Below, in pieces: positions 7,676-8,277 of a stretch of DNA of 10,589 bases. Below the pieces are notes generated by a model. That model saw nothing but the letters and a program-made list of their open reading frames with translations. It was not told the origin of the DNA and made no database searches. The stretch is from the IMG/VR virus record IMGVR_UViG_2609459825_000010. One strand, written 5' to 3'. How positions within the stretch are numbered: the first letter of the stretch is position 1; each line of letters starts with the position of its first letter. Source of the stretch: a virus. Its lineage: Duplodnaviria; Heunggongvirae; Uroviricota; Caudoviricetes. The position numbers were made by a program, and so were the translations under genes.

Positions 7676-8107
7676 ATGTTTGGTATTTTTGGTAAAAAAG
7701 CCCGCCGAGCGGCAGTGGAAATTAAAAAGTTTGAGAAACGTGATCTGGCACAGGCGGTTATTAATGCTGCCTATCTGGTGGCCTATGCAGATGGTGAATG
7801 TGAGGCTTCAGAGAAAGCGAAGATCGAGCAGGTCTTGCGTAACCAGCCTGCGTTGTCCGCGTTTACGTCAGAAATTAATGCGATTAGCGCAACCATTATC
7901 GGTCAGCTGGATACGAACTTTAAAATTGGTCGTCGAGCGGCGTTACGTGAGATCGAGGATGTGAAACACGATACGCGTGAAGCGGAAGACGTGCTGGATG
8001 TGGCGGTGGCCATTGCCGAAGCAGACGGCGAAATAGAGCCGGAAGAGCGCAAGGTGCTGGAAGAGATTGCCGGTGTTCTGGGCCTTCGTCTGGAGAATCA
8101 TCTGTGA
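7676..8107 (+). CDS. TerB-family protein (tellurite-resistance TerB-like domain), 143 aa
   Basis: MFGIFGKKARRAAVEIKKFEKRDLAQAVINAAYLVAYADGECEASEKAKIEQVL...VLDVAVAIAEADGEIEPEERKVLEEIAGVLGL aligns by eye with plasmid TerB (...VAVCARIAVASDGVSSEEKQKMIGFL...ALRVGIAVAKSDGNFDDDEKSAVREIARSLGF), including the duplicated aDG...E motif and similar length. RBS AAGGA 8 nt upstream of ATG 7676. Confidence 0.7.
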   Translation: MFGIFGKKARRAAVEIKKFEKRDLAQAVINAAYLVAYADGECEASEKAKIEQVLRNQPALSAFTSEINAISATIIGQLDTNFKIGRRAALREIEDVKHDTREAEDVLDVAVAIAEADGEIEPEERKVLEEIAGVLGLRLENHL

Positions 8108-8115
8108 CGGTAAAA

Positions 8116-8277
8116 ATGCGTCTGGCTGTGGTTGCGCTCCTGCTGTTTCTGGTAGTGATGGTGGTGATGGTGGACTTCAGCAGCCGGATAATGTCAGTGC
8201 TGGCTGACGGTGTGCTGGTGGCGGGTGTGGTGGTTGTTGCTTTCCCGTTGCTGAAAAAGAAAGCATCAGGCGATTAG
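8116..8277 (+). CDS. Small membrane protein (53 aa, two predicted transmembrane helices)
   Basis: Found by reading: MRLAVVALLLFLVVMVVMVDFSSRIMSVLADGVLVAGVVVVAFPLLKKKASGD. Starts 8 nt after the TerB-like stop; strong E. coli-like codon usage (CTG, GTG); basic C-terminal tail. No clear SD, so it may be translationally coupled. Confidence 0.45.
   Translation: MRLAVVALLLFLVVMVVMVDFSSRIMSVLADGVLVAGVVVVAFPLLKKKASGD

Follow-up and report, generated by a model that had tools for sequence, protein, structure and literature searches.

The tciA-tciB gene pair of a lambdoid prophage: a translationally coupled TerB and DUF3927 module in the position of the Shiga toxin genes

This study examined tciA-tciB, a pair of small genes carried on a 10,589-nucleotide stretch of viral DNA (Duplodnaviria; Heunggongvirae; Uroviricota; Caudoviricetes; IMG/VR record IMGVR_UViG_2609459825_000010), the whole of which is referred to here as the window. 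The window covers the late-regulatory region of a lambdoid prophage, and over positions 5901-10252 it shares 99.8% identity with a prophage found in E. coli S1-CAM-01-A. It is almost certain that tciA encodes a full-length, cytoplasmic protein of the TerB fold and tciB a hairpin of about 55 amino acids with two membrane helices, and that the two form an obligate, translationally coupled pair that moves as one unit among very different phages and lies here in the Q-dependent late region, in the slot where Shiga toxin (Stx) phages carry stxAB. The explanation that best fits these observations, put forward tentatively, is a membrane-tethered TerB module that serves the phage in lytic growth.

The first gene, tciA (7676..8107 on the plus strand, with an ATG at 7676 and a TGA at 8105-8107), is preceded by an AAGGA sitting 8 nt ahead of its start codon. 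A first-pass annotation made from the sequence alone had called the 143-amino-acid product, TciA, TerB-like, and the hidden Markov model (HMM) searches bear this out. TciA matches Pfam TerB (PF05099) at E=3.9e-16 and 59.8 bits (cut-off 24.4), with residues 26-138 aligned to positions 2-109 of the 118 in the profile; it matches PHROG 632 at E=3e-69 over residues 1-143 of 143, and the solved TerB structure 2JXU at E=3e-15 over residues 15-137. The AlphaFold (AF2) model is an all-helical bundle of seven helices (predicted local distance difference test, 85.7; predicted template modelling score, 0.80), for which Foldseek returned the TerB-superfamily structure 2H5N as the top PDB match, with a probability of 1.0, template modelling (TM) scores of 0.55-0.64 and weak E-values (0.03); the TM score against 2OU3 was 0.42. 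Additionally, TciA contains two acidic motifs of the form ADGE-x-E-x-x-E, namely ADGECEASE at residues 38-46 and ADGEIEPEE at residues 116-124. In an alignment of 12 sequences (41-80% identity), G40, E46, D117, G118 and E124 are invariant and D39 is nearly so; judged from the sequence, the duplicated Asp-Gly...Glu motif is a putative metal site. Residues 1-22 carry a charge of +6 and have the highest amphipathic moment of the protein, the remainder being at -13, and this basic amphipathic N-terminal segment is conserved. Weak matches were also seen to DjlA (NCBIfam, E=8e-7) and DUF533 (E=4e-5); because these scores fall far under the family cut-offs, the likeness is treated as an analogy and not as membership.

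The second gene, tciB (8104..8277 on the plus strand; RefSeq WP_032180851.1), encodes a 57-amino-acid peptide that matches Pfam DUF3927 (PF13064) at E=7e-20 and 71.2 bits (cut-off 25) and the 'TciB-like' family PHROG 1470 at E=9e-21. Its GTG start at 8104 overlaps the stop codon of tciA (GTGA, 8104-8107), with a GGAG 8 nt upstream. This is the start used by RefSeq, and the homologues begin at the equivalent site, with an overlap of 4 nt or 1 nt. The first-pass annotation had placed a 53-amino-acid reading frame 8 nt past tciA; the ATG on which that frame relies, at 8116, does exist and is a possible internal start, but the GTG at 8104 is the most likely start of the gene. The proposed two-helix character of the peptide was confirmed by two hydrophobic segments, predicted to form a hairpin with both ends in the cytoplasm, a basic N-terminus, a short loop and a basic C-terminal tail. 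Positions R6, D24, F25, S31, D35 and P48 are invariant among 10 aligned sequences, and Asp24-Phe25, Ser31 and Asp35 fall within or beside the helices. Within the gene, a 9-nt tandem duplication read directly from the plus strand (GTGATGGTG twice, 8155..8172) lengthens helix 1 by Val-Met-Val, a three-residue insertion relative to the TciB peptides of phages JLK-2012 and P1 and an extension that most alleles lack; the exact 57-amino-acid peptide with this duplication is present on 443 contigs.

The association between the two genes was surveyed in both directions. By TerB similarity, 80 viral loci and 40 species-level genome loci were collected, together with 20 annotated phage loci, and DUF3927 peptides were recognised in the fetched loci by an HMM search of their open reading frames (ORFs); the reverse sample comprised 80 further viral loci selected by TciB similarity. 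A TerB homologue with a DUF3927 gene directly after it was found in 107 loci. Among the TerB-selected loci, all intact copies from Enterobacterales and Aeromonadaceae, which span about 14 genera and 38-100% identity, are followed by a gene for a DUF3927-type two-helix peptide of 49-60 amino acids. Its start and the TerB stop share 4 nt or 1 nt. Conversely, a TerB match lay in the 700 nt upstream in all 80 of the TciB-selected loci, so that the co-occurrence raised as a question by the first-pass annotation proved to be reciprocal. Both genes are under purifying selection, with median ratios of nonsynonymous to synonymous substitution rates (dN/dS) of 0.04 for tciA and 0.31 for tciB; therefore, neither is a chance ORF. 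Even at saturation of the synonymous sites (proportion of synonymous differences, pS, 0.73), the TciA proteins of E. coli and Pantoea septica still share 92% of their residues.

The pair is distributed across lambdoid prophages, the phage-plasmids P1, P7 and D6, a Pantoea myovirus and an Actinobacillus phage, and it is also found in virulent phages, namely the jumbo Machinavirus phages of Erwinia and Salmonella and the N4-like Schitoviridae Pollock and UTK0002. Its site in lambdoid relatives is the interval from Q to the holin and lysis genes, and in phage Fostie and an Actinobacillus phage it is directly upstream of holin genes. A constant placement from Q to lysis was considered as a general rule; it holds in the lambdoid relatives and fails in P1-like, N4-like and jumbo phages and in several other prophage contexts. 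A universal linkage to tRNA genes was likewise rejected; E. coli lambdoid, P1-like and jumbo phages often show it, whereas most of the 40 species-level loci lack a tRNA gene within 3 kb. As a separate observation, tciAB lies about 60-500 nt from tRNA genes in several unrelated phage types (among them P1, P7, D6, jumbo Machinavirus and the window), each with its own set of neighbouring tRNAs (Ile/Arg/Arg; Asn/Thr/Gly; Asn/Thr...Ile; Trp/Cys; Ser; Arg).

The membrane component differs in Pseudomonas and Vibrio phages. In Pseudomonas phages and prophages, the TerB gene is followed by an unrelated gene for a conserved one-helix protein of 67-73 amino acids, usually overlapping the TerB stop by 4 nt, with the motif C-x-[WY]-YG-[YF]-QT-[ED]-R-x-T-[RK]-[YF]...VGCMV...GW-x-PR and no match in Pfam; this protein seems to replace TciB as the partner of phage TerB and is uncharacterised. 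In the N4-like Vibrio phage vB_VpaP-MS02, a gene for a 339-amino-acid membrane protein of the TerC/Alx family (PF03741, E=4e-41) stands directly upstream of TerB (locus 78-1626), and a small hydrophobic gene after TerB is absent.

The place of the pair within the prophage was resolved by a blastn comparison with a locus of the Stx2a phage WGPS6. Positions 7252-7554 of the window correspond to 4501-4803 of that locus (93.7% identity) and positions 8314-8544 to 6133-6367 (71% identical to the sequence that follows stx2B), giving breakpoints at 7554/7555 and 8313/8314. Between these breakpoints the window holds an exchangeable cassette of 759 bp (7555..8313, plus strand) in place of a 1329-bp stx2AB segment; stx2A and stx2B occupy 4847-6087 of the WGPS6 locus, and homology returns 46 nt past the stx2B stop. 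The earlier proposal of a Stx-phage layout with a discrete insert in the stxAB slot is thus upheld. The flanks are those of stxAB cargo, with Q, the tRNA genes ileZ-argN-argO and a terminator on the left and STnc100-like sequence and a sialate esterase gene on the right. The cargo itself is unrelated to stxAB; it is not a toxin, is not secreted and has no known virulence role. The left flank with its tRNA genes is common to more than 250 Stx2 phage records, in which the ileZ/argN/argO cluster is 92-94% identical to that of the window. The phage JLK-2012 carries another tRNA set (Asn, Thr, Gly) and yet matches positions 7481-8494 at 95%; therefore, the cassette travels together with its leader and the downstream small RNA (sRNA) region.

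The borders of the cassette were only partly as first described. Two terminators had been proposed to flank the pair, and both hairpins exist, at 7520-7537 and 8526-8539. The left one is an intrinsic-terminator-like hairpin on the plus strand (7520..7547 with its T run; GGCTCGCTTTTGCGGGCC then TTTTTTGTAT) that closes the tRNA cluster and is the last left-side element common to Stx2 phages. The right one belongs to an STnc100/PasD-family sRNA gene (8343..8552, plus strand) with its own terminator at 8526-8546, which is the first terminator downstream of tciB. This sRNA gene matches Rfam RF02076 with 145.6 bits (gathering threshold 47) over model positions 1-206 of 206; it lies outside the cassette and forms its right border. 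STnc100 is related to the PasD sRNAs, a family typically found upstream of prophage sialate esterase genes, and TerB (PF05099) is listed among the genes common near PasA and PasC sRNAs (bioRxiv 10.64898/2026.05.13.724894). Upstream of tciA, a simple consensus scan of positions 7540-7675 on the plus strand found no sigma-70-like site, and the cassette is presumably expressed by Q-antiterminated late transcription, as is stxAB. The 5' leader of tciA contains a long, nearly perfect hairpin (7578..7653, plus strand) according to RNA folding; the segment 7544-7690 folds at -57 kcal/mol (z=-2.43), and 2 of 200 shuffled sequences fold equally well. This hairpin is common to JLK-2012, being part of the 95%-identical block, and a processing site, an attenuator or a REP-like element are candidate roles for it.

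The first-pass annotation could not assign the module to any described system, and on this point it does not stand, since the genes are the tciA-tciB pair of P1 and JLK-2012, are filed as PHROG 632 and PHROG 1470, respectively, and are common in E. coli prophages. Of 5426 complete E. coli genomes, at least 789 carry the pair, counted as genomes holding at least 80% of positions 7600-8300, and 2364 have some match. In JLK-2012 the genes are annotated tciA and tciB, and the TerB protein there is 99% identical to the copy in the window. The names come from phage P1, where they were given by homology when the genome was annotated. RefSeq labels the products 'tellurite resistance TerB family protein' and 'DUF3927 family protein', and because identical proteins are already held in RefSeq the object is a known one. 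The pair is therefore known and named, common in prophages and annotated, which answers to one half of a refuting condition set by the first-pass annotation, the other half being a known function; as a discovery in this window it is ordinary and unsurprising to a specialist. What is new is that the pairing is reciprocal and coupled, that dN/dS is very low for tciA, that virulent phage families also carry the pair and that phages of Pseudomonas and Vibrio have a different membrane partner; the breakpoints of the cassette are now exact, and the right terminator is reassigned to an sRNA gene.

The closest relative among described systems is the tci module of P1, P7 and D6, in which a homologous TerB (41-53% identity) is directly followed by a 54-amino-acid DUF3927 peptide, with start and stop overlapping or abutting; the P1 proteins are 41% (TciA) and 44% (TciB) identical to those of the window. 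tRNA genes adjoin in these phage-plasmids as they do here, and the module is regarded there as non-essential accessory cargo named by homology alone. In P1, tciA and tciB are followed by a third tiny gene, tciC, in the C1-controlled ban operon, between tRNA-Asn/Thr and tRNA-Ile2. In the window no tciC-like ORF follows tciB, an sRNA gene standing there instead, and the copy occupies the stx slot of the Q-dependent late region, whereas the P1 copy is in a C1-repressed early operon; the helix-1 duplication of the window peptide is also missing from P1 TciB. By its profile matches, the pair is a member of the TerB and DUF3927/TciB families and a P1-type tci module minus tciC. A dicF-like region is also annotated in the P1 operon with tciABC, at 1059-1160 of the P1 locus and upstream of the tRNA genes; therefore, the P1 cassette sits in a block of small host-directed elements.

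More distant likenesses bear on how the two proteins may work together. TciA aligns over nearly its full length with the TerB structure 2JXU, and in both the ter operon and the phage module a cytoplasmic TerB protein stands beside a membrane protein. However, terC, terD, terE, terZ and terA of the terZABCDEF operon are not in the window, and TciB has two helices where TerC has nine; TerB alone is not expected to give tellurite resistance (PMC8123226). In DjlA and in YebE/DUF533, a helix of the same chain tethers a TerB-like domain to the inner membrane, whereas the phage pair has its membrane segment on a second polypeptide and lacks a J domain.

From these elements, a mechanism can be proposed in which TciB would keep TciA, as its membrane partner, on the cytoplasmic side of the cell membrane, in the way that the integral membrane protein TerC does for TerB in ter operons. 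The surface of the membrane would then be where the basic amphipathic N-terminus of TciA and its two acidic ADG...E motifs act, with the binding of divalent cations as the probable means. Four observations point to this role for TciB: a membrane partner is always present but exchangeable, being a one-helix protein or TerC in other phages; a TerC-TerB complex has been reported (Turkovicova 2016, as cited in PMC11003894 and PMC8123226); cellular TerB-like domains such as that of DjlA are membrane-tethered; and TciA combines a +6 amphipathic N-terminus with a -13 body bearing two Asp-Gly...Glu motifs. On balance, it is somewhat probable that TciB is the membrane anchor of TciA.

The final step of the proposal, and its weakest, is that the module would work for the phage in lytic growth and not as a trait expressed by the lysogen. 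Its likeliest task would be to stabilise the membrane and ion state of the cell, whether infected or induced, up to the time of programmed lysis. Pore-forming colicins, superinfecting phages, membrane-acting abortive-infection systems and other depolarising agents are what it would guard against. Action in lytic growth is suggested by the terminator and the lack of a promoter-like site in the consensus scan upstream of the pair, by the repression of the P1 copy by C1 in the lysogen, by the retention of the pair in virulent phages and by its placement between Q and the holin in lambdoid relatives. The stabilising role is suggested by the phenotypes of ter operons, which have been linked to phage inhibition (Phi) and to resistance against colicins that form pores (PacB) (PMC8123226; PMC7371120). 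A lytic-phase role of this kind must nevertheless be considered doubtful.

Several observations weigh against this explanation. A search of the literature for experimental work on the function of tciA, tciB, DUF3927 or lambdoid TerB found none, only annotations and remarks on homology. Knock-down of P1 tciA, tciB and tciC by CRISPR interference caused no plaquing defect in the laboratory, and the genes were scored as non-essential (PMC10695390). The operon has also been lost in nearly half of the P1 subgroup-1 phage-plasmids (PMC9603915), and any benefit of tciAB is therefore conditional. Physical contact between TciA and TciB is presumed. Two proteins in which TerB and DUF3927 are joined (197 and 170 amino acids) were considered as Rosetta-stone fusions; their junctions are frameshift read-throughs of the overlapping stop and start, and as these were the only such fusions found, they provide no evidence of interaction. 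The identities of TciA and TciB to the window copies do not run in parallel across phages (70% and 26% in ChrisDB, 43% and 57% in Fostie), which could reflect a loose partnership or recombination between the genes. TciB is without similarity to TerC, and the idea that it is a fragment or mimic of TerC was dropped after comparisons of its profile with phage TerC by hhalign and hmmsearch came back empty (probability 0.1, E=0.64). The timing of the pair varies, being early in P1 and the N4-like phages and late in the window. Lastly, the promoter scan was a simple consensus scan, and read-through in the lysogen or a non-canonical promoter could give low expression.

Low expression from the prophage is what the best-surviving alternative calls for. 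Here the pair would act as a lysogen-expressed immunity trait by superinfection exclusion or abortive infection, in the manner of ter operons or of the Shango and Bunzi systems. The inhibition of phages and the colicin resistance tied to ter operons (PMC8123226; PMC7371120) agree with such a role, as does the position of the pair, the stx slot being a classic site for accessory cargo. A TerB domain is shared with Shango and Bunzi, for which membrane-linked sensing, or 'membrane surveillance', has been proposed (bioRxiv 10.1101/2022.05.11.491447). However, membership in a known defence system was rejected because the PADLOC-DB search gave no convincing match and the partner genes are absent: the only hit was a marginal one for TciA (PDC-S48, E=0.003 over 35 residues), with none for TciB, the Shango and Bunzi models were unmatched, and no helicase, ATPase or other effector gene was found among the genes of the window. 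The pair is, moreover, borne by phages, and strictly virulent jumbo and N4-like phages keep it, although these could still use it for exclusion during infection. Immunity in the lysogen is therefore unlikely. Of the functions first suggested for the pair, a membrane-stress module expressed on induction fits best; superinfection exclusion or abortive infection in the lysogen fits less well because of the missing promoter-like site, with a terminator ahead of tciA, the C1-repressed copy in P1 and the strictly virulent carriers.

The roles of the two proteins could also be reversed, with TciB as the active agent, a membrane-perturbing peptide resembling a holin, antiholin or toxin, and TciA as its cytoplasmic regulator or sensor, together setting the time of lysis or acting as a kill switch aimed at the membrane. 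The size and predicted topology of TciB do match those of small two-helix holins, the residues of TciB that are invariant in or beside its helices (Asp24-Phe25, Ser31 and Asp35) would suit such an activity, and the pair stands directly upstream of holin genes in Fostie and the Actinobacillus phage and between Q and the lysis genes in lambdoid relatives. However, the HMM searches matched TciB to no holin or toxin family, DUF3927 being its sole Pfam match, and the two-helix holin class was set aside on this ground and because the matching prophage has its own class II holin downstream (RefSeq); indeed, all of these phages have separate holins. In P1, the N4-like phages and the jumbo phages, the pair lies away from the lysis genes. 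Furthermore, TciA is far more constrained than TciB (dN/dS 0.04 vs 0.31), and the replacement of the peptide by an unrelated membrane protein or by TerC points to TciA as the central component. An active role for TciB is therefore held to be improbable.

Slightly less probable again is a takeover of host metal homeostasis, in which TciA-TciB would bind and modulate a host exporter of the TerC family (Alx, YoaE or YegH in E. coli) or another transporter and so alter the handling of Mn, Ca or Zn. The reported TerC-TerB complex (again Turkovicova 2016, as cited in PMC11003894 and PMC8123226) and the adjoining TerC/Alx and TerB genes of Vibrio phage MS02 are consistent with it, as is the invariance of the acidic ADG...E motifs, nearly complete at D39; TerC is reported to contribute to resistance to both zinc and tellurite (PMC12054061). 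The case is, however, purely inferential, TciB does not resemble TerC and no metal-related gene was found near the pair in the window. Lysogenic conversion to tellurite or oxidative-stress resistance, as implied by the database name and by homology to the TerB of ter operons, is very improbable because terC, terD and terE are required (PMC8123226) and absent here; the window is likewise without the other ter genes, a promoter for expression in the lysogen was not evident in the consensus scan and the pair is present in virulent phages.

The remaining features of the window place the cassette in its late region. The gene for antiterminator Q (5135..5956, plus strand; 273 amino acids; Pfam Antiterm PF03589, E=4.6e-51) marks the start of that region and is labelled 'antitermination protein' by RefSeq in the S1-CAM-01-A prophage. 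A terminator-like hairpin 83 nt past Q (6039..6060, plus strand; CCCGCCGCCTGGCGGG then a T run) is a candidate tR', an assignment made from its position only. Between the putative tR' and the tRNA genes, profile matches identified a small TrmB-like helix-turn-helix (HTH) gene (6183-6380) and a gene for an AraC-family regulator of 237 amino acids (6514-7227; PHROG 1450), both on the plus strand and both missing from WGPS6. The AraC-family protein is similar to YdeO and GadX (NCBIfam scores of 109 and 87 bits, each far under cut-off), and a sigma-70-like site lies ahead of its gene at 6451-6478; with these two genes the prophage could regulate acid-resistance or virulence genes of its host. The tRNA cluster on the plus strand, recognised by ARAGORN and the Rfam tRNA model, comprises tRNA-Ile2/Met(CAT) (7256-7331), tRNA-Arg(TCG) (7338-7414) and tRNA-Arg(TCT) (7429-7505), which are the ileZ, argN and argO of Stx2 phages, respectively. 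Beyond the sRNA gene, a sialate O-acetylesterase gene of the nanS-p type (8764..10566, with an alternative start at 8734, plus strand; Pfam DUF1737, SASA and DUF6645) is labelled 'SASA family carbohydrate esterase' by RefSeq and is 73.5% identical to the esterase gene of WGPS6. Elsewhere in the window, a hok/sok-type toxin-antitoxin locus was noted at 2929-3254 on the plus strand, where a sok RNA match (2929-3104; Rfam RF01794, 112 bits) overlaps a 70-amino-acid ORF of the Hok/Gef family (3042-3254; Pfam E=6e-22). At the left end, a 145-amino-acid ORF on the minus strand (313-747) matches the HTH of insertion-sequence transposases (Pfam HTH_Tnp_1, E=2e-10), which suggests an insertion-sequence remnant in the early region of the prophage.

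The pair is worth pursuing for reasons that extend beyond this prophage. With at least 15% of complete genomes carrying it, tciAB is among the commonest accessory cargoes of E. coli lambdoid prophages, and it is under very strong purifying selection in at least four unrelated phage types, even though the name 'tellurite resistance' is a guess from homology. In its broadest form, the proposal would make tciAB a widespread phage 'membrane guard' or counter-defence module, with TerB as a sensor or buffer and an interchangeable membrane partner; this generalisation is unlikely as matters stand. If true, it would mean that temperate and virulent phages alike prevent a collapse of the membrane, brought on by the host, rival phages or colicins, ahead of the phage's own time of lysis, and the recurrent placement beside tRNA clusters would mark a shared host-takeover or anti-defence block. 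Showing the function would correct an annotation that misleads in thousands of genomes and could reveal how phages manage the membrane and ion balance of their hosts during infection.

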